64,000 nt of DNA, from the IMG/VR virus record IMGVR_UViG_3300037420_000246, positions 3,642-67,641 of that record; one strand, 5' to 3'. Positions 2,931-47,935 of this stretch are shown here, in pieces (position 1 is the first letter of the stretch; every line of letters starts with the position of its first letter). The notes under the pieces were generated by a model. It worked only from the letters and a program-made list of their open reading frames with translations, had not been told where the DNA came from and ran no database searches. The position numbers were made by a program, and so were the translations under genes. Source of the DNA: a virus.

Positions 2931-4301
2931 ATGCCAAAGAAATTAACACAAGAAGAATATCTAGCTAACTGCATTAACGCCCACGGCTCGACGTACAATT
3001 TAGAAAGAATTGTGTATCGCGGAACGATGTCGAAAGTTACTGTCGGTTGTCCAATCCATGATTGGTTTGAAGTGAAAGCCGGATCATTTATGAGAGGGAC
3101 TGGTTGCGCCAAGTGTGCTGCAGATAAGCGGGGTCTTAACAGACGACTCTCAGAGGGAGAATTCTTATCGCGGAGTGTCGCGCGGCATGGACAAGACTAC
3201 GGATACCAATTTGTAAACTACGTGAAGACGGATGTTAAGGTCAAGATTCTCTGCAATCGCTGCGAATGCACCTTCGAGATGACGCCAGAGTGTCATATGG
3301 CAGGACAAGGCTGTCGTGATTGTGGATACGAGAAGAATGGCTTGAATAAGCGCAGCAAGTTTGAAGAATTCGTCAAAGCCTCGCGTGAACATCACGGACA
3401 AAAGTTCAATTATGATGGTGTTGATTGGAGAGGAAATAAACAATCTATTGAGTTGTTTTGCCCTGTCCATCAAGAATATTTCACGACTACGCCAGCACTG
3501 CACGCGAAAGGAGCGGACTGCCCTAAATGCGCTAAACAACGAGGTGGTCTGAAGAACCGCAGTAATACCGAGAAGTTTGTCAAAGATGGAACTGAGAAGT
3601 TTGGAACACGATTTGACTACTCTGAAGTGGACTACATCAAAAGCAATCTTAAAGTGAAGATTCGTTGTGTTACGCATAATAAGTGGCTTTCTGTGACTCC
3701 GAATATGCATCTAGCAGGTTTTGGAGGTTGTGCGGATTGCGCTAAAGAAGCCACGAGTGAGCGTTGTAAGAAGTCAACGGAGCGTTTTGTCCTTGACGCC
3801 ACTAAGGAGCACGGTTCTCGGTATGGCTATGATCGTTCCATTTACAACGGTGCGTACAACAAAGTAGAAATTCATTGCAGAGAGCACGGCTATTTCTGGC
3901 AGAGCGCTGGCGCTCACATAGCAGGCCGAGGTTGCTCTAAATGTGGTAACAACGGGTATAAAGTAAACAAATCTGGGTATCTTTATGTTCTATACGATGG
4001 TGAATTAACTAAGGTTGGCATTACAAACAGGAACCCTGAAATCCGTTGCAAGTTTATTGCTAAGAAGTCTGAACGCCCATTCGAAGTTTTGAAGTTTTAC
4101 CACTTCGATGACGGCGGAGTTCCGTTGAGTCTTGAAACAAAACTGCTGAGTGAGTTGTGGCAAACATATAAGTCTCCAACAGAGAAATTTTCAGGATACA
4201 CCGAGTGCTTTTACCATGTTGACCAAGCCGCCCTACTAAACCGAATTGAATCACTAATCAAAGAGCAACATAGCTCTTACTCCGCTTCACCAGAAGCATA
4301 A
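2931..4301 (+). CDS. Homing-endonuclease-like protein: four zinc-ribbon repeats + C-terminal T5orf172/GIY-YIG-like domain
   Basis: Four ~60-aa repeats each ending G-x-G-C-x-[KD]-C-[AG]; C-terminal GYLYVLYDGELTKVGIT motif resembling GIY-YIG/T5orf172; inserted between tail tube and chaperone genes with its own flanking hairpins. Confidence 0.6.
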   Translation: MPKKLTQEEYLANCINAHGSTYNLERIVYRGTMSKVTVGCPIHDWFEVKAGSFMRGTGCAKCAADKRGLNRRLSEGEFLSRSVARHGQDYGYQFVNYVKTDVKVKILCNRCECTFEMTPECHMAGQGCRDCGYEKNGLNKRSKFEEFVKASREHHGQKFNYDGVDWRGNKQSIELFCPVHQEYFTTTPALHAKGADCPKCAKQRGGLKNRSNTEKFVKDGTEKFGTRFDYSEVDYIKSNLKVKIRCVTHNKWLSVTPNMHLAGFGGCADCAKEATSERCKKSTERFVLDATKEHGSRYGYDRSIYNGAYNKVEIHCREHGYFWQSAGAHIAGRGCSKCGNNGYKVNKSGYLYVLYDGELTKVGITNRNPEIRCKFIAKKSERPFEVLKFYHFDDGGVPLSLETKLLSELWQTYKSPTEKFSGYTECFYHVDQAALLNRIESLIKEQHSSYSASPEA

Positions 4302-18194: not shown

Positions 18195-18446
18195 TTACTT
18201 CAGCTTGTCGTACAATTCCTGCTTCTCAAGCTTCTCCAACCAGCTAAGACCACCCGGAGCAAACAGCCTTCCCTCTACATAGAACTGAGGGACACTTCGA
18301 TGCTGCTCTCCGAGAAGGAATGCCTTAGCGTCTGCATCTTCGTCAATCTTTACCACCTCAAACGGAATGCCATAATATTCTAGAAGGGTGATAGCCTTAA
18401 CACAGGCAGGGCAGTTGTTCTTAGAGTAGATTGTTACAGTCTTCAT
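18195..18446 (-). CDS. Glutaredoxin (NrdH/Grx-like)
   Basis: MKTVTIYSKNNCPACVKA CPxC thioredoxin-fold motif; start at 18446 with SD AAGGAAG (track start 18560 would overlap RNR gene); adjacent to RNR. Confidence 0.75.
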   Translation of the reverse strand: MKTVTIYSKNNCPACVKAITLLEYYGIPFEVVKIDEDADAKAFLLGEQHRSVPQFYVEGRLFAPGGLSWLEKLEKQELYDKLK

Positions 18447-18513
18447 TTCTTCCTTACGTGGATAGTTGTAGAGATTAATTGGAGGCATCCAATCGTTCCA
18501 TGCCTCCATTGTG

Positions 18514-20394
18514 TTAGATGATTTCGCAGGCACCACCAGCACACGCACTCTCAGCAGCAAGGTCTACGGCGTTCCCGTTTTCTTCAAACACTTGCCCAAT
18601 GTCGATTCCTTCAAGAAGCGGAAGCAGAGACTCGTAGCGCTCTTTCGTAATATCCTCAAAAGGAAGTTGAGGATATGCTTCGGCCCCTGCAAAAGGCAAC
18701 ACGGAGATGCCATTGTAGTGATCCTTGTTTTCCCACATCCACTTCGTCAGTTCTGCCCATTCATCATTCTTGACAGAGATAGTACAGCTAACGTTGTGTT
18801 GATTAATGCCGGTACGATGCCCTGCTGACACCCAATTTTGAGACACATTCTTCACACGTTCCAGAAGAGAATTCATCGTCTCTGTCCTTACCGTTGCGCC
18901 ATCAGGGGCCTTCTGCGGGAAACTCAGTACAACTTGGTGGGGCACGAACACATCCTGCTCTACAAGAGACGGAGCGGCTTTCATCATATATTGTGCAAGC
19001 GCCTCATCTTTACCTGCGCGCATACGGCGGATGTAGTAGGGAGCATGCCAAGCGTGAATGCCACTCGAAGTGCCCAACACAAGCGACGTAGTACCCGCAG
19101 GTTTCACACACGTTACTCGTGCAGCCTTCTTAATACCAAGCTGTTTAGCCACAGCAGCGTTAGTATCAAGGGCGTGCTTTGCTGCTTCACTCATGTTCAA
19201 CGGTTCTACAGTGCCAGATGCAATACCAGTCATAGACACGCCCAGCAGCGCATCCTTTTCGCAAGCAATCTTCCATTTAGGATTCAAGTAGTGGAAGTCT
19301 GTATATCCTGCTTGAAGCGTGCCGATGAATGCTGCTGCTGATGCTGCTTCGTTGAAGCTTTGTTGGTCAGTGATGGCGCTTGCATTAATTTCCGAAAGAT
19401 TGCACATTTGGTACGGGCGCAAGGCAATTTCACAACATGGGTTCGTTCCCCAATCTTTGTTGTTCGTCCAATACACTCCCGGCTCTCCACAACCACTGTC
19501 TTCTACACGCTTCATCAGTTCAGCAAACTCTTCCTCAGTAACTTCCCCACGAGGCAGCACAGCAGAGTTATTAGAGCGAGCACGATACGGATGCGTCAGA
19601 TACCACTCACCGGATTTTGCAGAAAGCATTTCTTCATCATCACGATCAAACAAGCTAATCATAGCTGCACGGCGAATACCTCCTGCCAACACTGCATCTG
19701 CAATGATACAAGCCATGTCATGCACTTCAATAGGTTTCAGCTTTCGTCCGACAGCAGAACGGAGAAGCACAGTGAGCTTTTCTACACAAACTCGTAGTGG
19801 CTCTGGTCCCGGTGCTTGCCCACCAGTCGTAACCAACTCACTCCCTTTTTCCCGAATGTCCCGATAGTCAAATACAGGCAGAGTGCCCGCGTTGAAGAAT
19901 GCCTTGGCTACCACTTTAATAGCATCGCTCCAACCAATAATACTATCTTGCACTTGAAACTTGTATTCACCATCCGACTCAGGTAGTTTCACTTTAGGCA
20001 GCTTGCCTACATGACGCCTCTGCACAGAGTAGCCCATACCCGTACCGCCCAACAGCAGGAACATAAGCTCGCTGAAGAAGTGGGGAGACTCAGCAGGAGC
20101 ATACGCACAATTGAAGATACGTGCCTCATTCAATAGGATGGGACGACCACCAAATTGCAGCGAGCGCATCGACGGCAGTACACGCTTGGTATCAACAAAA
20201 TTCTTATACACGCCATGAATCTCATCAGCCATCTCTGGATACTTTTCGATGTGCATCGCTTGATTGCGAGCGCTAATCTCGATAAAGTTTTCCCGACGAT
20301 TCAGTTCAGGTACAAATTTTGCATACTTGTTAAAAACAGTAATATCCGACAGTGCTTTTTTATCCATTGATTTCATTTCCTTTTGATTGCTCAT
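18514..20394 (-). CDS. Ribonucleotide reductase catalytic chain (possibly class II/B12-dependent; no beta-subunit gene seen)
   Basis: 626 aa; NPCCEIALRPYQMCNLSEIN active-site region resembling RNR NPCGE/CNL motifs; C-terminal redox Cys pair ACAGGACEII; adjacent glutaredoxin. Confidence 0.8.
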   Translation of the reverse strand: MSNQKEMKSMDKKALSDITVFNKYAKFVPELNRRENFIEISARNQAMHIEKYPEMADEIHGVYKNFVDTKRVLPSMRSLQFGGRPILLNEARIFNCAYAPAESPHFFSELMFLLLGGTGMGYSVQRRHVGKLPKVKLPESDGEYKFQVQDSIIGWSDAIKVVAKAFFNAGTLPVFDYRDIREKGSELVTTGGQAPGPEPLRVCVEKLTVLLRSAVGRKLKPIEVHDMACIIADAVLAGGIRRAAMISLFDRDDEEMLSAKSGEWYLTHPYRARSNNSAVLPRGEVTEEEFAELMKRVEDSGCGEPGVYWTNNKDWGTNPCCEIALRPYQMCNLSEINASAITDQQSFNEAASAAAFIGTLQAGYTDFHYLNPKWKIACEKDALLGVSMTGIASGTVEPLNMSEAAKHALDTNAAVAKQLGIKKAARVTCVKPAGTTSLVLGTSSGIHAWHAPYYIRRMRAGKDEALAQYMMKAAPSLVEQDVFVPHQVVLSFPQKAPDGATVRTETMNSLLERVKNVSQNWVSAGHRTGINQHNVSCTISVKNDEWAELTKWMWENKDHYNGISVLPFAGAEAYPQLPFEDITKERYESLLPLLEGIDIGQVFEENGNAVDLAAESACAGGACEII

Positions 20395-21004
20395 TTACAA
20401 CTAATTTCTTCTTGCGTTTCTTCTTTACCACTTCTACTTCTGGATTTTTATAATCCTCTACCGTCTTAACACTTCCATCCTTCTTATACTGACTCCCACG
20501 GATATGAAACAGAATGTCTTCAAGCTGTTTAATCTGCTCCGTAATGGCGTTCTCTTCCTCTTCATATTCATTAGCATACTCAAGATGGCTCTTGTGTGAA
20601 AACCTCTCAGCTTTCTTGGCCTGTTTAGGAACATTCTCATCAAGCGCCATGTCACTACCATAAGAGACACACGCACTACTCATGGCATGTAATTGTTCAA
20701 ACAGGCTCTGATCACTATGACTTGCTGCGACTAGGACATCTTCAAGTGTGCTATATGGGCCTTTAATATGTTCCCTGCTAAGATTGTATTCTCCAGCAAA
20801 CACATAGCCAATCTTCACTTCATTCTTCAGCGTCCTATGTTGTGCTGCATAAATGTGGACAGGTTTCGTAACATCGAACCCAAGCGTTTCTAGCACAGCG
20901 TTCACCTTATCAATGTTGTCCAGATGGCACAGATCAAACTGATTCATACCTTGGAGCGTGTCTGCTAGGAGCAGATCATATGCGGAAATAACTTTACTCA
21001 TCAA
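20360..21004 (-). CDS. Hypothetical protein (acidic C-terminal coiled coil)
   Basis: 214 aa ORF between MazG-like and RNR genes. Confidence 0.5.
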   Translation of the reverse strand: MMSKVISAYDLLLADTLQGMNQFDLCHLDNIDKVNAVLETLGFDVTKPVHIYAAQHRTLKNEVKIGYVFAGEYNLSREHIKGPYSTLEDVLVAASHSDQSLFEQLHAMSSACVSYGSDMALDENVPKQAKKAERFSHKSHLEYANEYEEEENAITEQIKQLEDILFHIRGSQYKKDGSVKTVEDYKNPEVEVVKKKRKKKLVVNEQSKGNEING

Positions 21005-21417
21005 TACGCCTTCCCACCAGCAGCTTCACGATTTTCTTTCTTATGATCTGGACGCACGGCATTAAAAGCAAGCTTCTCTTCAATTGCGCCACCAAGATCA
21101 AGTCTCAGAGCACCAGCCAAATCGGCAATCCGAATCACGGCATCTGCTAGTTCCACTTCTAACATCGAACGATGTGGCAACTTATCGTCCATCAGACCTT
21201 TACGATGTCCTTCCATGCCTTCACTAACTTCGCTATGAGTGAGGCACAGTTTCTGCGCTACCAGCGCTCCAGCAAGCAACTCTTGAAAGGCGTCTTGCGG
21301 ATTGTTCACCACTTCTACAAGGTTCAGCCCCGTTTTACTGTGATGCCACCAGCCTGCACTATAGGACGCCCCGTGGCAAGTGTAAACAAGATTGTTGATG
21401 TTTGCTTTAATACTCAT
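21001..21417 (-). CDS. MazG-like all-alpha NTP pyrophosphohydrolase
   Basis: HSEVSEGMEGHRKG and EVELADAVIRIADLAGALRLDLGGAIEEKLAFNAVR resemble MazG/HisE EExxE...ExxDxL motifs. Confidence 0.5.
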   Translation of the reverse strand: MSIKANINNLVYTCHGASYSAGWWHHSKTGLNLVEVVNNPQDAFQELLAGALVAQKLCLTHSEVSEGMEGHRKGLMDDKLPHRSMLEVELADAVIRIADLAGALRLDLGGAIEEKLAFNAVRPDHKKENREAAGGKAY

Positions 21418-23777: not shown

Positions 23778-24409
23778 TCCTCCACCAATCCTTTCTTCAA
23801 TTCTTCCTTGCGCTCTTCATAACTCTGAATAAGTCTATTATGATGCTCGATGTTCTGCTCTGCAATCTTAATGCTGCTGTCAAGCTGCGCCAGTTGCTCG
23901 TTGATTTCCTTGTTGCGACGGAGTTGTTCGGCAGTGAGTGGCTTGGGTTCGTAGAGTGTCCACCAACCCCCATCAAACCTGTAGGAGATTTCAGACTCAC
24001 TGTATCGACATCCCGCACCTTCTTCTCCAATGTTCCCGTAGTGCCAACAGCGCCACTCATTGCCATCTCGGGTCATTGTGAGTTTGTCATTTCCACCAAT
24101 GGTGTTGATGAAGTGGAATACATCAGGATACTTGCTAGGCTTTTTACTTTCTTCTGCAATCACCCAGCCACCATCGCTCACACACCCCTCCACCTCATAC
24201 TTATAAGTTTCGCCCCAAGGAACCTCGTCAATCTCGTTGGCCCACCCTCGTGCCCACTTCACTTTCACAATATCTCCTTCTACTTTCGCACTGTGAGTGA
24301 AGCCGGGATTAGACCTGAGACGAAAGCTAAACTTGTTTGGCAATTTCATTGTTATTCCCTCCTTAAAATTGTTATGCACATTATACATTGAATTCTTGTT
24401 TGCTGTCAA
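23774..24409 (-). CDS. Hypothetical protein with C-terminal coiled coil
   Basis: 211 aa ORF; Trp/Gly-rich core, K/E-rich C-terminal helix. Confidence 0.5.
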   Translation of the reverse strand: MTANKNSMYNVHNNFKEGITMKLPNKFSFRLRSNPGFTHSAKVEGDIVKVKWARGWANEIDEVPWGETYKYEVEGCVSDGGWVIAEESKKPSKYPDVFHFINTIGGNDKLTMTRDGNEWRCWHYGNIGEEGAGCRYSESEISYRFDGGWWTLYEPKPLTAEQLRRNKEINEQLAQLDSSIKIAEQNIEHHNRLIQSYEERKEELKKGLVEE

Positions 24410-24975
24410 GAGGCGTTTCGTAAGATTTCCTCTAAAGCTTTCTTCCTCTTTGCAGCGTTCGATAGATTATTATATCCGTGCTGCTCTAGAAGAGCAAGAA
24501 GTTCTTCCTTGTTTTCCTTCTTCATAAGACGGATAACTTCTTTATCTATCTTAGCGTCCTCAAAACTCATCTTGGGGTGTTTCTGCATGTGAGAGACGAC
24601 CGCATGGCATGACTTACACAAGCAGCGCATGTCTGCGTAAGTGAGCATAAACAGGTGTCTTGCATACTTCTCGACATCATCCATGTTCCTGAGAGTGCTG
24701 CTGTCTCCGATATGATCTACTTCAATGTCTCCCTGTACATGAGGGGCACCACACAACTCGCAGTCAATGCCCCATATCATCGCATGATTGCTGGAGAACT
24801 TCTCTTTCGGGTTAGGAATCTTACGTCGCTTGGATTGCTTGTACAAGTGCTTCAATGGGTACTTAGACCACCCTTTTCTCAGAACTCCACGAACCCACGT
24901 AATGAACTTAGATTCGCTTCCCCAAGGGTTGTTTGGTTCTTCCCAAGGCTTTGCGTCTTTACGGCCTGTAGACAT
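24406..24975 (-). CDS. HNH homing endonuclease
   Basis: CELCGAPHVQGDIEVDHIGDSSTLRNMDDVEKYARHLFMLTYADMRCLCKSCHAVV contains the HNH C..C...(E)VDH...N...C..CH signature. Confidence 0.7.
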   Translation of the reverse strand: MSTGRKDAKPWEEPNNPWGSESKFITWVRGVLRKGWSKYPLKHLYKQSKRRKIPNPKEKFSSNHAMIWGIDCELCGAPHVQGDIEVDHIGDSSTLRNMDDVEKYARHLFMLTYADMRCLCKSCHAVVSHMQKHPKMSFEDAKIDKEVIRLMKKENKEELLALLEQHGYNNLSNAAKRKKALEEILRNAS

Positions 24976-33344: not shown

Positions 33345-34604
33345 TTACTGTATTTTACTTGGCAGGTTGTTGTGTGTCAAGGGGTTAGTGTCAACATTGT
33401 TGAATAGCCACTCGTCTACAAAGTCTACTACATCTTGGTACAGTTCTGGGTAGGTAGCTTCGGTCATAAAACCCTCAACCTCTTGCGAAAACCTAGGAAA
33501 AGTGGCTTTTATGGCTTTCTCCACCTCCCATGCTTGCCGACCTGTCATCTGGAAAATCTCCGTCTTACCCAATCTAAAGCCAGCCCTCCTAAGATTTCTA
33601 TCGTGATCCGTCAAGCGCCTGTCCGGTGCATTTGAAATCCCGTACCCTGTAAAACCGTGCCTGCCTTCTACGAGCAAGATGTACAAGTGCCCATCTTTGT
33701 TTGTATCAAACCCACCCTTAGCACAACTGGGACACCCACTGCAATTGTAGAGGAAAGCGTCAGCCCGAGCCAGCCAGTTGCCATGCTCCTCGCAGTGCAT
33801 CACGCATCTGCTGTCAAAACCTGAATACTCCCCATCCCAATCTACAAACTTGTACTTCAAGCCTCGTTCTGCAATCGTCTTTGTTATTAGATGTTGCCTT
33901 TGTTCGGGCGTCCATCTAAAGTGTGGTCCACACCGACACGATTTTGCCCCTCGCTTTAATGACTCTACGTGCTGCTCAAAAACTCCTGTGCAAACGCCTG
34001 CCTTCACAAAATCATCATTGCTGCACACGGAGCATGTAACATTCCAATAATTTCTTTTCTTTCCAGACCCTCGTAGACTTCTAGAGAAGGTAGTCCCTTC
34101 AGGGTACAACCCGGCCTCTAAAAACATAATAATCATGTCGTCATCAGATTTTCTGTAGCGATCCCCAGTAACCTTTGCTGCACAACTTGGACAGCCAACA
34201 TCCAACAAAAAGTTTGTTACAGTGGTTGAAGCCCAGCAAAACTGACAAGTCTGACACTCCAACTTCAGCTTAGTGGCAACCCCTTTGTATTCCTCTGCGT
34301 ACCCTATAAGTCTATACCCTTTGTCTTCTGCTGATCTTTGGACCTTCACCAACGTCTGTTTTTCTGTCAACCTTGCAAACTTAGAACATCCGCAAGGTTC
34401 AATGTTACGATCAATTATCGATTTTGGAGTTAGATAAATTCCATCACCGAACATTTCAGGGTCTTCACTACAAGTGTGGCACTTCACTTTGTAAATCCGA
34501 TCTTTCTTACCCCGGCGGTAGCCATCAAATGCTAGTATTTCTAACTGACCGTCCTTGCCATAACGTTTTCCTATAAATTTTGTATCATCAAATGGAGGAC
34601 TCAA
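33345..34604 (-). CDS. Homing-endonuclease-like protein: zinc-ribbon repeats + T5orf172/GIY-YIG-like domain (paralogue of 2931..4301)
   Basis: Repeated GCPSCA / GCSGCPSCA Cys modules; C-terminal GHLYILLVEGRHGFTGYGIS motif; same architecture as the + strand gene at 2931. Confidence 0.6.
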   Translation of the reverse strand: MSPPFDDTKFIGKRYGKDGQLEILAFDGYRRGKKDRIYKVKCHTCSEDPEMFGDGIYLTPKSIIDRNIEPCGCSKFARLTEKQTLVKVQRSAEDKGYRLIGYAEEYKGVATKLKLECQTCQFCWASTTVTNFLLDVGCPSCAAKVTGDRYRKSDDDMIIMFLEAGLYPEGTTFSRSLRGSGKKRNYWNVTCSVCSNDDFVKAGVCTGVFEQHVESLKRGAKSCRCGPHFRWTPEQRQHLITKTIAERGLKYKFVDWDGEYSGFDSRCVMHCEEHGNWLARADAFLYNCSGCPSCAKGGFDTNKDGHLYILLVEGRHGFTGYGISNAPDRRLTDHDRNLRRAGFRLGKTEIFQMTGRQAWEVEKAIKATFPRFSQEVEGFMTEATYPELYQDVVDFVDEWLFNNVDTNPLTHNNLPSKIQ

Positions 34605-38625: not shown

Positions 38626-39279
38626 TCAAGTCACTTTGAATGTCTTGTTGATCTGCTCTGCAATCAGTCGTGCAAGAACAACGTGCTCAAGCTGCGTTAC
38701 ACCTTCCTCAAGCCTCACTTCTAAATAGTGAATCCACGAACGAATAGTTCCATTGACGTACAAGCGGCTCATCGTAAGACCTTCTGGCAGAATGACGCGA
38801 GCAACCTCTTTAGCAATACCGCGATCAAGAGCACGCTTGTACGTATCTTGTACAATTGCCAGCAACATTTTCTGTTCACTCTCCCACCAATCTTTCAACA
38901 ACTCATCGTCCGTTGCCAAACTGTTTTGCCGGTTCTTGGTGTCTTGCATTCGCAACTCTCGTAGACAGAAAGCTTGTTCTAGCTGAGTCACATCAGCGTA
39001 GCGCTGGCTAAACTCTTGAAACTTGAAGCTGCCATGCCGCAACAGTTGCCTTGCAATATCTCGCGGAGACTCCACCTCTACAACACAGTTTGCCATCTCG
39101 AACGGACTCCAGTGCTTATGCTTCTTGAGATAGTTAAGAAGCTTATCCGCCGTGTTCGTGTTCATCTGATTAGCGGGGTTGCTAACACGAGCACAATACG
39201 CGATAAGTTCTTGTGCATCCTTCATGCCAGTTTCTTCCACTGGTTGCGTAACAGCAATCAAACGTGCTTTAAAAGTCAA
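38626..39279 (-). CDS. thyX: Flavin-dependent thymidylate synthase ThyX
   Basis: ThyX signature RHGSFKFQEFSQRY (RHRx7SxRY). Confidence 0.85.
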   Translation of the reverse strand: MTFKARLIAVTQPVEETGMKDAQELIAYCARVSNPANQMNTNTADKLLNYLKKHKHWSPFEMANCVVEVESPRDIARQLLRHGSFKFQEFSQRYADVTQLEQAFCLRELRMQDTKNRQNSLATDDELLKDWWESEQKMLLAIVQDTYKRALDRGIAKEVARVILPEGLTMSRLYVNGTIRSWIHYLEVRLEEGVTQLEHVVLARLIAEQINKTFKVT

Positions 39280-40413: not shown

Positions 40414-41448
40414 TTAACGTTTATTCGTCTCAATCTTGCCAACATCAACACAACCAGTCCCTCCACAAGCAGAGCATTCCTGCACAGGACGATTGATTTC
40501 CTCCATCAACTCTTCCAGATAGTTCTTAATTTGCACTGCCATCTCTTTCAGGTTGTTGGCCTGCCATCCTGCAATCGGCGTGTAGCCCTTGTAATTGTTT
40601 GGTGAATACGTCATCTCAAACAAATCCACTTCCTTGTGCTCTACAGATTGGGTAACAAACTTAGGTCGGCCGCGAGGAGTGTTCTTAACAGTCTTCTGCA
40701 CATTGTAAGGCTTAATAGCAATCTTACGCTTTACAGTGAAACAGAAATCATAGTCTGATGTGATTCGAGCGTATTTCCCATCGATGTGTGTGCGGACATA
40801 ATCACGAACAATCTTATACACCTGCTCTGAGGACAGCGAGCATGGACGCTCATGCAGCAAGAATTCTGGCGTCAGCATCTTCTCGATGTCACTGTAGCGG
40901 ACAATGCTGGACAACTCGTATTCCCCTGTACGACTGCTCCAACCAGAGCTTTCAAGCATGCTCACTTTCATCTCAATAGGGTTTTCCACCTTATCAATCT
41001 GAAGATGCTGAATAACGTTCACGCTAAACTCAATAGGCTCCCACGAGTCAGGAAGGGTTTCTGTAACAGGCTTATACAGAGCACGGTACTCGTTAAAGTG
41101 TTTCCATGCTGTGTCGTCCAGATCATCATTCCAATACTGCTCCACTTGCTCAATCGACAGATTCAGAGGAATTTCCTCGTTTGCCAGAGTAGGAAGCTTG
41201 AGGGTGAAGCCAATAGTTTGCGTGCTGCCTCGCTTCAAATCTTCAATGCTCGTGATTTCATCAACACCTTGCAAGAACACCCACTTTGGAAAGAAAGTTG
41301 GTTGTGCAATATCACTCAAAAGTTTTCCGTTCACCTTCCAACGATCCAAGCTGCCTACGGCACTGGTAAAGCCGGATGTGTAGCCATAGCTGCCACTCTC
41401 AGCAATGTACATGCCAAGATTGGTTTTGTATGCCATTAGGTTCTTCAT
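40414..41448 (-). CDS. Hypothetical protein with C-terminal CxxCGGTGC motif
   Basis: Start at ATG 41448 with SD GGAGG (track start 41469 lies inside upstream gene); about 344 aa. Confidence 0.5.
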   Translation of the reverse strand: MKNLMAYKTNLGMYIAESGSYGYTSGFTSAVGSLDRWKVNGKLLSDIAQPTFFPKWVFLQGVDEITSIEDLKRGSTQTIGFTLKLPTLANEEIPLNLSIEQVEQYWNDDLDDTAWKHFNEYRALYKPVTETLPDSWEPIEFSVNVIQHLQIDKVENPIEMKVSMLESSGWSSRTGEYELSSIVRYSDIEKMLTPEFLLHERPCSLSSEQVYKIVRDYVRTHIDGKYARITSDYDFCFTVKRKIAIKPYNVQKTVKNTPRGRPKFVTQSVEHKEVDLFEMTYSPNNYKGYTPIAGWQANNLKEMAVQIKNYLEELMEEINRPVQECSACGGTGCVDVGKIETNKR

Positions 41449-41726
41449 TTGTCCTCCGCACTCACCCATCGAACGACAGTGATGGTCTCTAGCTTAGGAG
41501 TCACTTTCCGCACCTCTGGTTCGTACCACTCGCTATCACTCCAATATCCGCTGTTCGAACGGGTAAAGTCCACAGCAAAGTGCTCTTCACCAACAGCGTA
41601 AATGTCAGTTTTGTATTGCATCTTGTGTTCGGTTTCCCAATCCCCTGCTTCTACGACAGTGCAACCGTCGCCACCCACTTCTGAGTGTCCAAGTACATAA
41701 AGATGCCTGAATTCTGATACATTCAT
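41445..41726 (-). CDS. Hypothetical protein
   Basis: 93 aa ORF, ATGA coupling. Confidence 0.5.
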   Translation of the reverse strand: MNVSEFRHLYVLGHSEVGGDGCTVVEAGDWETEHKMQYKTDIYAVGEEHFAVDFTRSNSGYWSDSEWYEPEVRKVTPKLETITVVRWVSAEDK

Positions 41727-44121: not shown

Positions 44122-44189
44122 GCCCCTTGTTGTGTTCACTCTACAACTATGTTCACGTAACATGAACAACATTCTTACGCGAACAGCAC

Positions 44190-44218
44190 TTGACATCCCT
44201 CTACAAGCCCCGTACAAT
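44190..44218 (+). promoter_or_regulatory. Consensus sigma70 promoter for rightward early operon: TTGACA-N17-TACAAT
   Basis: TTGACA 44190-44195, 17-nt spacer, TACAAT 44213-44218; 40 nt upstream of ATG 44258. Confidence 0.6.
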
Positions 44219-44257
44219 GTCGATTGTCTCAACAAAATTCTTAAGGAGGAATGTAAC

Positions 44258-44731
44258 ATGAAACAAGTGAAGTGTGTAGACAACTACGATGGAGAAAATT
44301 ATCTGACAATCGGACGTGTGTATGACGTTCTGGAAGAGACGAAGGCTTGCTACACAATCATCAACGATGAGGGAGATTGTAGTGCGTACTATAAGACAGC
44401 CTTTGAGGCTGTAGGAAAGGATGCAGAAATCGCAGGCGAGCAGAAGGAATTTAGCGGAAACAATGTAGATTATTACATTGTCGAAATCAACGAACCAAAA
44501 CGTCTCGCTCCGTACTGCGCAGAAGCTGAAGACATCATTGAATCTTTAGGTATGACGTTTGCTGAAGGATGTGCATTCAAGGCAATCTGGAGGTCGTGTG
44601 CTGCCCGAACCCTTGGTAAAAAGAAGAAGGGGCAAGACGAAGAAGGCATCTACGACGCGGAGAAAGTAGTGTACTACGGAGGAAGGATGCTTGCAACACG
44701 TAAGAAAGCTGCCTATAAAAATGAATCTTAA
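44258..44731 (+). CDS. Hypothetical Cys-rich early protein
   Basis: ATG 44258 with SD AAGGAGG; 157 aa; track start 44132 would precede the promoter. Confidence 0.55.
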   Translation: MKQVKCVDNYDGENYLTIGRVYDVLEETKACYTIINDEGDCSAYYKTAFEAVGKDAEIAGEQKEFSGNNVDYYIVEINEPKRLAPYCAEAEDIIESLGMTFAEGCAFKAIWRSCAARTLGKKKKGQDEEGIYDAEKVVYYGGRMLATRKKAAYKNES

Positions 44732-46308: not shown

Positions 46309-46684
46309 TGCAACAAAATATGGGTTGTCTGGTCATATCGTTTGCTGTGACATTCGGTTACTTTGTGTAGACACGATAACCCATTCATAAGAATCTTACA
46401 AGCACATTCTAGAGGGAGTTACACATGTGAGATTGTTGCATTGCCACATTCCATACAGTTGTCTTGTTGACCATAGGTAACTTCCCATAGCATGATGTAC
46501 AGCAAACGGCAATAGATTTTAGAGCGCACGGTTAAAATTTTTCTTGTGTTGCTGGGAATGTTGTTTTATAGTGTCACTCATGGACAGCAAGCAGAGACAA
46601 GGTGGAATGTCAAGATTGCCCTAGCTGCCCTGCTAGGTGGCTGTACAACAAACTAACTGAATACAAACTTAAGGAGAATTGAAC

Positions 46685-47365
46685 ATGAAAGACGCTACGA
46701 TGACCGCCGTAATCCCTCGCTTTGCACCAATTTCGAACAAGGCAGTGATTTTCCTTCCTGAGACGAAGGAAAACGGCAGGATTGACATGATTACGGAAGG
46801 GCAACGTATTACCGTTGGCATCGACTACTACATGGCTACAGAGCCCCTCAGTGCCGAAGATGCCAAGAAAGTGGCGCTGGCATTTGCACAACACGAGCAC
46901 ATCAATCCTGACATGCTCGTTATTCGTCAGCGTCTGCCCAAGACGATGAATAAACGTCCTAGCCGTCTGAATGACGCTAACCTTGTTCTTGTCCAACAGG
47001 AGCAACCTAAACAAGAAGCTGCACCAAGCTCGCTCGCGGAATTCGCGCAGGCACTACAGGATGAGCACAATCGCCGGCAGGGCGACAAGCAAGAAGGGCA
47101 GAAAGCCACTGCGCATCAGCCAGAAGGCGCTGTTGTAGAAACTAAAACCAAGAGGAAGTACAACAAGAAGACTGCTGAGGAACGTTCACGCCGTAGCGCT
47201 GCTGCCATGAAGCGTTACCAAGAAGAACTTGCCCGCGTAAGCTCGCAGTCTCCTACGTTGATGGAACCTGTTGCAACCGATGCACCAAAGCCTGTCGTTG
47301 ACCAAGCGATTCTTGATCTGGCTCAGGCTTTGGCCCGTATCCTGAAGGTGCCCGGTGCCGTCTGA
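46685..47365 (+). CDS. Hypothetical DNA-binding-like protein (basic helical region)
   Basis: ATG 46685, SD AAGGAGA; 226 aa; Gln/Ala-rich linker then basic segment KTKRKYNKKTAEERSRRSAAAMKRYQEEL. Confidence 0.5.
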   Translation: MKDATMTAVIPRFAPISNKAVIFLPETKENGRIDMITEGQRITVGIDYYMATEPLSAEDAKKVALAFAQHEHINPDMLVIRQRLPKTMNKRPSRLNDANLVLVQQEQPKQEAAPSSLAEFAQALQDEHNRRQGDKQEGQKATAHQPEGAVVETKTKRKYNKKTAEERSRRSAAAMKRYQEELARVSSQSPTLMEPVATDAPKPVVDQAILDLAQALARILKVPGAV

Positions 47366-47512: not shown

Positions 47513-47935
47513 ATGAATCATGGTGCTGCTGTTGGGCTGGCCCTTAAATATCACAACGGTCAAAAATATGGAGAACACACCTACATCTATCACTTGAGTT
47601 GCGTAGTGGACAGTGTGTTGGATGCCAATTATTATGGGGCAGAAGTGGATGTAGCCTACCTCCACGACATCCTAGAAGACACTGCCTGCACTGAAGAAGA
47701 GCTTCGCCAGAAATTCAGTGCTGAGGTTGTTGATGCTGTTGTGGCTATGACGAAACGTGAAGGCGAGGCTTACGAGGAATACATTAAGCGTGTCCGCAGC
47801 AATTCCATCGCCCATGTCGTAAAGATTCACGATACGATGTGCAATCTAGCTGAGAGCCTGAAGCAGAACCAGATTGGACGTATTGCGAAATATTCTAAGC
47901 AGATGTATTTGCTGACGAAGGGGGTTGACGAATGA
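47513..47935 (+). CDS. Small alarmone hydrolase: RelA/SpoT-type HD-domain (p)ppGpp hydrolase (Mesh1/SAH-like)
   Basis: KYGEHTYIYHLSCVV...VAYLHDILEDTACTEEELRQKFSAEVVDAVVAMTK matches the SpoT hydrolase HD motifs (H...HD..ED...FG..V..LV.GVTK); 140 aa stand-alone. Confidence 0.65.
   Translation: MNHGAAVGLALKYHNGQKYGEHTYIYHLSCVVDSVLDANYYGAEVDVAYLHDILEDTACTEEELRQKFSAEVVDAVVAMTKREGEAYEEYIKRVRSNSIAHVVKIHDTMCNLAESLKQNQIGRIAKYSKQMYLLTKGVDE

Follow-up and report, generated by a model that had tools for sequence, protein, structure and literature searches.

A class II ribonucleotide reductase, a MazG-like protein and a small alarmone hydrolase encoded by an uncultured siphovirus-like phage

A 64,000-nucleotide stretch of viral DNA, positions 3,642 to 67,641 of the IMG/VR record IMGVR_UViG_3300037420_000246 (here called the window, at its full length), is most of the genome of an uncultured, siphovirus-like tailed phage. 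On the minus strand, from 21417 to 18195, it carries an island of four closely packed genes encoding a MazG-like protein, an orphan protein, a ribonucleotide reductase (RNR) and a glutaredoxin; elsewhere, in the presumed early region, lies the gene for a candidate small alarmone hydrolase (SAH). From sequence comparisons we propose, with reasonable but not high confidence, that the island serves DNA-precursor supply, that the MazG-like protein acts on (deoxy)ribonucleoside triphosphates [(d)NTPs] and that the SAH degrades alarmones.

Results

The RNR gene (18514-20394, minus strand) encodes a protein of 626 amino acids (aa) that matched phrog_367 'ribonucleotide reductase' (E 2e-119). A preliminary description of the window had noted an RNR catalytic chain without a beta-subunit gene and suspected a class II enzyme. 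Compared with structures in the Protein Data Bank (PDB), the protein aligned over residues ~128-625 with the ribonucleoside-triphosphate reductase (RTPR) of Lactobacillus leichmannii (1L1L; E 6e-36), and dimeric NrdJ (1XJE) reached an E value of only 0.16. In a comparison of profiles of the NrdJ and NrdA types, the best NCBIfam model by a wide margin was TIGR02505 (RTPR; 3.7e-69 vs 6e-5 for NrdE/NrdA). Its score of 233.7 bits lies under the equivalog cutoff of that model (340.05), which we read as the mark of a divergent phage clade. Pfam recognised only a short stretch of the RNR barrel, together with a weak match to the insertion domain PF21995.

Catalytic residues were conserved. N318, C320 and E322 align with N406, C408 and E410 of RTPR, C331 aligns with C419, and the C-terminal cysteine pair C618/C623 aligns with C731/C736 (CAGGACEI vs CEGGACPI); a counterpart of RTPR C119 was not aligned. 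No beta subunit (PF00268 or PHROG RNR-small) was found among the scanned window open reading frames (ORFs) of at least 100 aa. The RTPR homology, the conserved residues, the best-scoring model and the lack of a beta gene in the window confirm the earlier suspicion, and we conclude that the enzyme is, by homology, a monomeric class II RNR of the RTPR type. Like the L. leichmannii enzyme it is a single chain with the thiyl Cys/Asn/Glu motif NPCxE, a second active-site Cys, a C-x4-C tail and no beta subunit, but it is shorter (626 aa vs 739 aa). It presumably depends on adenosylcobalamin (B12), as its homology suggests. The closest RNR homologues in isolated phages, those of Oceanospirillum phage PD0307 (64% identity; L002:4510-6357) and Vibrio phage VPs20 (60%; L001:7968-9863), are labelled 'recombinase' in GenBank, evidently a mis-annotation.

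The RNR gene is followed, after a gap of 80 bp, by the glutaredoxin gene (ORF 18195-18560, minus strand, with a probable ATG at 18434; 79 aa). The protein matched PF00462 (E 3.9e-14; 53 bits vs a cutoff of 22.9) and TIGR02181 (3e-11). Its active-site motif, read from the sequence, is NNCPACVKA, and it is thus the CPAC glutaredoxin that had been described. It is likely the reductant for the C-terminal cysteine pair of the RNR.

We compared the gene order of the window phage with that of three related metagenomic phages, a sister phage (L010) and two others (L019 and L020). All three kept the order MazG-like gene, orphan ORF and RNR, and their MazG-like proteins were 90%, 83% and 78% identical to that of the window. 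In the relative at 83%, which was compared directly, the orphan ORF was 64% and the glutaredoxin 52% identical to the window copies. The RNR of all three, however, is of class I, with a PF00268 beta and a PF00317/PF02867 alpha subunit encoded at the matching slot (L010:6995-9747, L019:5501-8198 and L020:6187-8972), and the window RNR had no significant similarity to the class I alpha subunit of the sister phage. Because the neighbours and their order are shared while the relatives carry class I enzymes, these comparisons indicate that the window phage has replaced a class I RNR by a monomeric class II enzyme in the same gene slot. Two of the three relatives (L010 and L019) also have a glutaredoxin gene after the RNR, and this persistence of the linkage with class I enzymes supports the proposed partnership of glutaredoxin and RNR.

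The MazG-like protein (21001-21417, minus strand; 138 aa) matched phrog_5658 'pyrophosphatase' (7.5e-62) but no Pfam or NCBIfam model. The PF03819 (MazG) profile, which the preliminary description had named as a check, failed to detect it at E values up to 10, and the same was true of every member of a 46-sequence family alignment. PF12643 'MazG-like' gave weak, sub-threshold matches to 12 of the 46 members (best E 0.0026) and none to the window protein. Homologues number 4932, nearly all of them lacking any Pfam domain.

In the 46-sequence alignment, E63, E66, E69, E87, E89 and D92 were invariant. They form the ExxE...ExxD signature of all-alpha NTP pyrophosphohydrolases, with the metal-binding motifs E63-x2-E66(-x2-E69) and E87/E89-x2-D92 on adjacent helices, and a phosphate-binding helix K115-x3-N119-x2-R122 was likewise invariant. 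Three further invariant elements are specific to the family: an N-terminal GWW, an HRKG..DDKLPHR loop and a C-terminal RPDHK...GGKxY tail. Searched against solved structures, the family profile matched MazZ of cyanophage S-2L (7ODY; E 4e-4) and human/mouse DCTPP1 (0.026). An AlphaFold2 model (pLDDT 95) showed a helical bundle whose top Foldseek matches, none of them significant, were mostly MazG, DCTPP1, iMazG, HisE and DR2231; the predicted fold is consistent with MazG, YpjD, iMazG and MazZ. Since the invariant motif and the profile matches to MazZ and DCTPP1 agree, we regard membership in the all-alpha NTP pyrophosphohydrolase superfamily as secure at the level of sequence, but not membership in MazG proper. 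The label 'MazG-like pyrophosphohydrolase' given to the protein before therefore stands for the superfamily motif and the phrog_5658 match, but not for PF03819.

The window protein, predicted to be an all-alpha bundle, has a single domain like MazZ and DCTPP1 and can be aligned with them along the helix that carries ExxD and along the K-x3-N-x2-R helix after it. The similarity is only marginally significant, however, and the GWW, HRKG..DDKLPHR and RPDHK...GGKxY elements set the window family apart. Unlike the setting of MazZ, the window held no PurZ or Z-genome genes that we could see. We considered and rejected the idea that the MazG-like and HD proteins are a MazZ/DatZ-like pair of a Z-genome phage, as the HD protein is clearly of the RelA/SpoT homologue (RSH) type and we saw ThyX but no PurZ. 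Neither family scans nor a crude motif scan of the window revealed a canonical dUTPase or dCMP deaminase, which fits, without proving it, a MazG-like enzyme that makes dUMP or dCMP for ThyX.

Between the MazG-like gene and the RNR lies an ORF of 213/214 aa (20360-21004, minus strand) with a weak match to phrog_3506 (2e-8). The predicted protein has an N-terminal alpha/beta domain, a long helix and a lysine-rich tail. It matched nothing in Pfam, or in phages by tblastn, and has 25 homologues only; its conservation between the MazG-like gene and the RNR is confined to this phage group.

The HD protein (47513-47935, plus strand; 140 aa) passed the PF13328 (HD_4) cutoff narrowly (E 8.7e-7; 29.2 bits vs 27.2). 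Among PDB structures it matched Aph1 (7SMG) at 4.6e-15 and the SAH of Pseudomonas aeruginosa (PaSAH; 6YVC) at 1e-9. A 43-sequence profile matched 23 solved RSH hydrolases, among them Aph1 (7e-30), PaSAH (1e-18) and Rel, SpoT and Mesh1 (1e-10 to 1e-15). The metal ligands, the ED dyad and an Asn (H27, H51-D52, E55-D56, D107 and N111) were invariant in the 43 homologues. As in Aph1 and PaSAH, a single compact HD domain of ~140-150 aa carries the metal ligands and the ED dyad, and the proteins can be aligned over their full length. We conclude that, as far as homology can tell, the HD protein is a genuine RelA/SpoT-type small alarmone hydrolase, as had been claimed. It had also been called (p)ppGpp-targeting. 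An alarmone hydrolase is credible, but the closest solved relative, Aph1, is (p)ppApp-specific, and (p)ppGpp as the target is not established.

The specificity of Aph1 for (p)ppApp goes with a six-residue signature, D24, R96, D116, R119, K133 and Y134 (PMC10083569). In the window SAH, R93, K126 and Y127 match R96, K133 and Y134, but the other three are absent: the loop that holds D24 in Aph1 is shorter by two residues here (GQ-KYG), and A113 and L116, or a gap, stand opposite D116 and R119. An Aph1 D24R/R119A mutant gains ppGpp hydrolysis (PMC10083569). Because counterparts of D24 and R119 are missing, the window SAH cannot be predicted to be restricted to (p)ppApp, and a broad specificity is plausible.

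Stand-alone phage SAHs of PVP-SE1 (PbcSpo) and SSU5 (PaSpo) neutralise all tested toxSAS toxins (PMC7229694). The window SAH was 32.8% identical (E 8e-6) to gene 220 of Salmonella phage PVP-SE1, which presumably is the SAH tested in that study. By analogy, a counter-defence role of the window SAH would have an experimental precedent. The scanned window ORFs and the genes flanking the SAH contained no RSH synthetase and no cognate toxSAS or (p)ppApp synthetase. Directly upstream of the SAH gene, a 228-aa protein (46679-47365, plus strand; 48% identical to its counterpart in the sister phage) has a basic helical segment at residues ~150-191 that resembles the C-terminal half of bS21 (E 4e-5 to Acinetobacter bS21). 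This could be a real S21-like module or a compositional resemblance.

The SAH and MazG-like families occur together in the sister contig Ga0395899_0000194, in the Pakpunavirus phage Adele and in Pseudomonas phage Pyxpy01. The SAH of Adele was 37% identical to that of the window (E 2e-19), and the C-terminal domain of PaAdele_096 was 49% identical to the window MazG-like protein (E 2e-28). The MazG-like protein of Adele, however, is a two-domain protein of 269 aa encoded next to an RNA ligase gene, whereas that of the window has a single domain and lies in the RNR cluster; the phages also differ in type, that of the window being siphovirus-like and uncultured. Host tallies for Pseudomonas phages were near-identical in the two families (53/25/19/10 records for the MazG-like vs 51/25/18/10 for the SAH). 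Outside Pseudomonas they differed, with 22 Vibrio records for the MazG-like family vs 105 for the SAH; Burkholderia had 13 MazG-like records and was not among the ten most frequent genera of the SAH. The pairing is not new. In the description of Adele (2025), joint modulation of (p)ppGpp or (p)ppApp by the SAH and the MazG-like protein was put forward as a possibility, and the substrate of the MazG-like protein was called uncertain (PMC12846349).

The window is organised in three strand blocks. A rightward structural and lysis block (1 to 16.4 kb, plus strand) encodes a 1937-aa tape measure protein, a tail assembly chaperone and a GH19 endolysin. It is followed by a leftward replication block (16.5 to 44.1 kb, minus strand) with DNA polymerase, an exonuclease subunit, primase/helicase, nucleases and ThyX, and by a rightward block of many small, presumably early genes from 44.1 kb on (plus strand), to which the SAH belongs. 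The island is the 3' end of the leftward block. Its MazG-like gene, orphan ORF and RNR gene overlap successively by a few bases. The coordinates of the preliminary description, including those of ThyX and the HD protein, were all correct. It had presented the RNR, glutaredoxin and MazG-like genes as adjacent; the cluster is real, but the ORF between the MazG-like gene and the RNR had gone unmentioned. ThyX (38626-39279, minus strand) scored above both curated cutoffs (PF02511, 1e-35 and 123.7 bits vs 24.8; TIGR02170, 131.7 bits vs 87.9). It had been placed further along the same operon. The gene and its position are as described, and it is part of the same leftward block, but 17 kb separate it from the island downstream and a shared operon was not shown; a promoter and terminator scan of 16-24 kb gave counts not above shuffled expectation, so that operon boundaries could not be set.

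Searched by megablast against 50,697 phage records, the island had no match. An identical protein is present on JGI contigs of up to 67.6 kb, and the phage is known from metagenomes only. A 351-aa protein of the leftward block (40414-41469, minus strand) matched PF25705, Gabija anti-defence 1 (Gad1), at 8.8e-63, and the sister phage has a Gad2 gene (PF26128; L010:343-1095). The phage group thus encodes known counter-defence proteins. Two endonuclease genes, HNH or other, lie within the replication module (24406-24975 and 33345-34604, both minus strand); they matched phrog_1985 (8.7e-53) and phrog_681 (7.6e-66) and are possibly homing endonucleases. In the first gene of the rightward block (44132-44731, plus strand), an N-terminal DUF6501 region is joined to a C-terminal domain that matches several PHROGs, one of them labelled 3'-phosphatase/5'-polynucleotide kinase (phrog_7063, 2.5e-17).

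Discussion

Gene identities, family and predicted fold placement, catalytic residues and gene order are observed here, and the scheme that we derive from them goes further in every substrate and physiological role that it assigns. At the end of the leftward replication module, the island would supply DNA precursors. The monomeric, B12-type class II RNR would make deoxyribonucleotides, the glutaredoxin would re-reduce it via its C-terminal cysteine pair, and ThyX, further upstream, would make dTMP. The MazG-like protein would most likely split (d)NTPs such as dUTP or dCTP into (d)NMP and pyrophosphate, and would thereby clean up the pool and contribute to thymidylate synthesis; degradation of alarmones by this protein appears less likely. 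The SAH would act on (p)ppApp and/or (p)ppGpp, possibly also on pyrophosphorylated tRNA, by taking off the 3'-pyrophosphate, and would blunt growth arrest by toxSAS-type or (p)ppApp toxins, or the stringent response. A role of the MazG-like protein in precursor supply is supported by its gene staying in the RNR cluster in all four sampled members of the group despite the change of RNR class. We favour dNTPs over alarmones as its substrates because the nearest solved relatives, MazZ and DCTPP1, act on dNTPs.

Several observations weigh against this scheme. The more distant MazG-like homologues adjoin RdgC, RNA polymerase or Ant/HU genes rather than RNR, and Mu-like Burkholderia phages carry members of the family as well. 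The linkage to RNR is specific to this phage group and may reflect descent, not function. The preference of the RNR for NTPs or NDPs is suggested by homology only. In addition, at least two or three phage lineages carry the SAH and MazG-like families together, a hint that the two may serve a common purpose. Finally, one phage enzyme described as MazG-like does act on an alarmone: Atd1 of Pectobacterium phage PcCB7V depletes (p)ppGpp, has a Km of ~50 uM for the hydrolysis of ppGpp and confers protection against TIR effectors (bioRxiv 10.1101/2022.06.09.495361).

The preliminary description held that the MazG-like protein and the SAH both degrade (p)ppGpp or related alarmones and thereby suppress the host stringent response or toxSAS-type defence. 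Atd1, the recurrence of both families in the sister phage, Adele and Pyxpy01 with their near-identical Pseudomonas host counts, and the many invariant basic residues of the MazG-like protein speak for such a dual role. Like the window protein, Atd1 is a small phage protein of the MazG/HisE superfamily with the ExxE...ExxD motif. Judging from its annotation, Atd1 is likely an 86-aa PcCB7V ORF that is labelled 'phosphoribosyl-ATP pyrophosphatase' and lies two genes from a nucleotidyltransferase (NTase) gene. However, an hhalign comparison of the window family with this putative Atd1 returned a probability of 4.9%, no significant profile similarity, and we rejected the window protein as an Atd1 orthologue. 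PcCB7V also has a gene annotated 'GTP pyrophosphokinase' (L004:17532-18773), which would give this genome an RSH-family gene in addition to Atd1. The MazG-like gene of the window, moreover, is part of the replication and nucleotide module, in the strand block opposite to that of the SAH gene and ~26 kb away from it, the Vibrio and Burkholderia tallies of the two families diverge, and the MazG of a cyanophage neither binds nor hydrolyses (p)ppGpp but prefers dGTP and dCTP (PMC6850273). No specific tie of the MazG-like protein to (p)ppGpp was found in our comparisons. With no PF03819 match, nearest solved relatives of the dNTP type and no detectable similarity to the putative Atd1, the claim of two (p)ppGpp-targeting enzymes did not hold up for the MazG-like protein, and we consider it unlikely that both proteins degrade alarmones. 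A division of labour, in which the MazG-like protein is dedicated to hyperphosphorylated or defence-made nucleotides and cleaves their 5' side while the SAH takes off the 3'-pyrophosphate, would account for the recurrence of the pair both in this siphovirus group and in unrelated Pseudomonas myoviruses; we nevertheless regard such two-enzyme disposal as rather improbable.

Two further possibilities assign defence-related roles to single proteins. The MazG-like protein might act against other nucleotides, such as the chain-terminating 3'-deoxy-3',4'-didehydro-NTPs (ddhNTPs) made by viperins, or other modified or signalling nucleotides, as was raised in PMC12846349. The spread of the family through unrelated phages, in varied early or replication contexts, is in keeping with this, as are Gad1 in the window and Gad2 in the sister phage. 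But the MazG-like gene is not adjacent to anti-defence genes and we found no characterised homologue with such an activity, so that we give the idea a low probability. The SAH, in turn, could be the immunity protein for a (p)ppApp-synthesising toxin of the phage itself, as Aph1 is for the MuF-fused Apk2; Aph1, its closest solved relative, is phage-encoded beside such a toxin (PMC10083569), and the window does not extend to the head and portal region, the expected place of a MuF toxin. Yet no RSH synthetase domain turned up in the genes scanned, and the SAH gene lies among small early genes and not beside a structural toxin gene, a context that it shares with its counterpart in the sister phage. 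This explanation, too, seems to us very unlikely. Precursor supply by the island, with (d)NTPs as substrates of the MazG-like protein and alarmones as those of the SAH, remains the reading that we prefer.

Taken together, these results do not overturn current understanding; their main by-products are the in-place swap of the RNR class and a large, uncurated MazG-like family. The exchange of class I and class II enzymes between otherwise syntenic phages is a clean case of RNR modularity and could reflect the availability of oxygen, iron or B12 in the host niche. A phage SAH whose closest relative is Aph1 may target (p)ppApp or the products of toxSAS rather than the stringent response. Likewise, the annotation 'MazG-like' should not be taken to mean 'ppGpp hydrolase'. 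The MazG-like family is large, uncharacterised and common in therapeutic Pseudomonas phages, and a single enzymatic study would annotate thousands of its genes.

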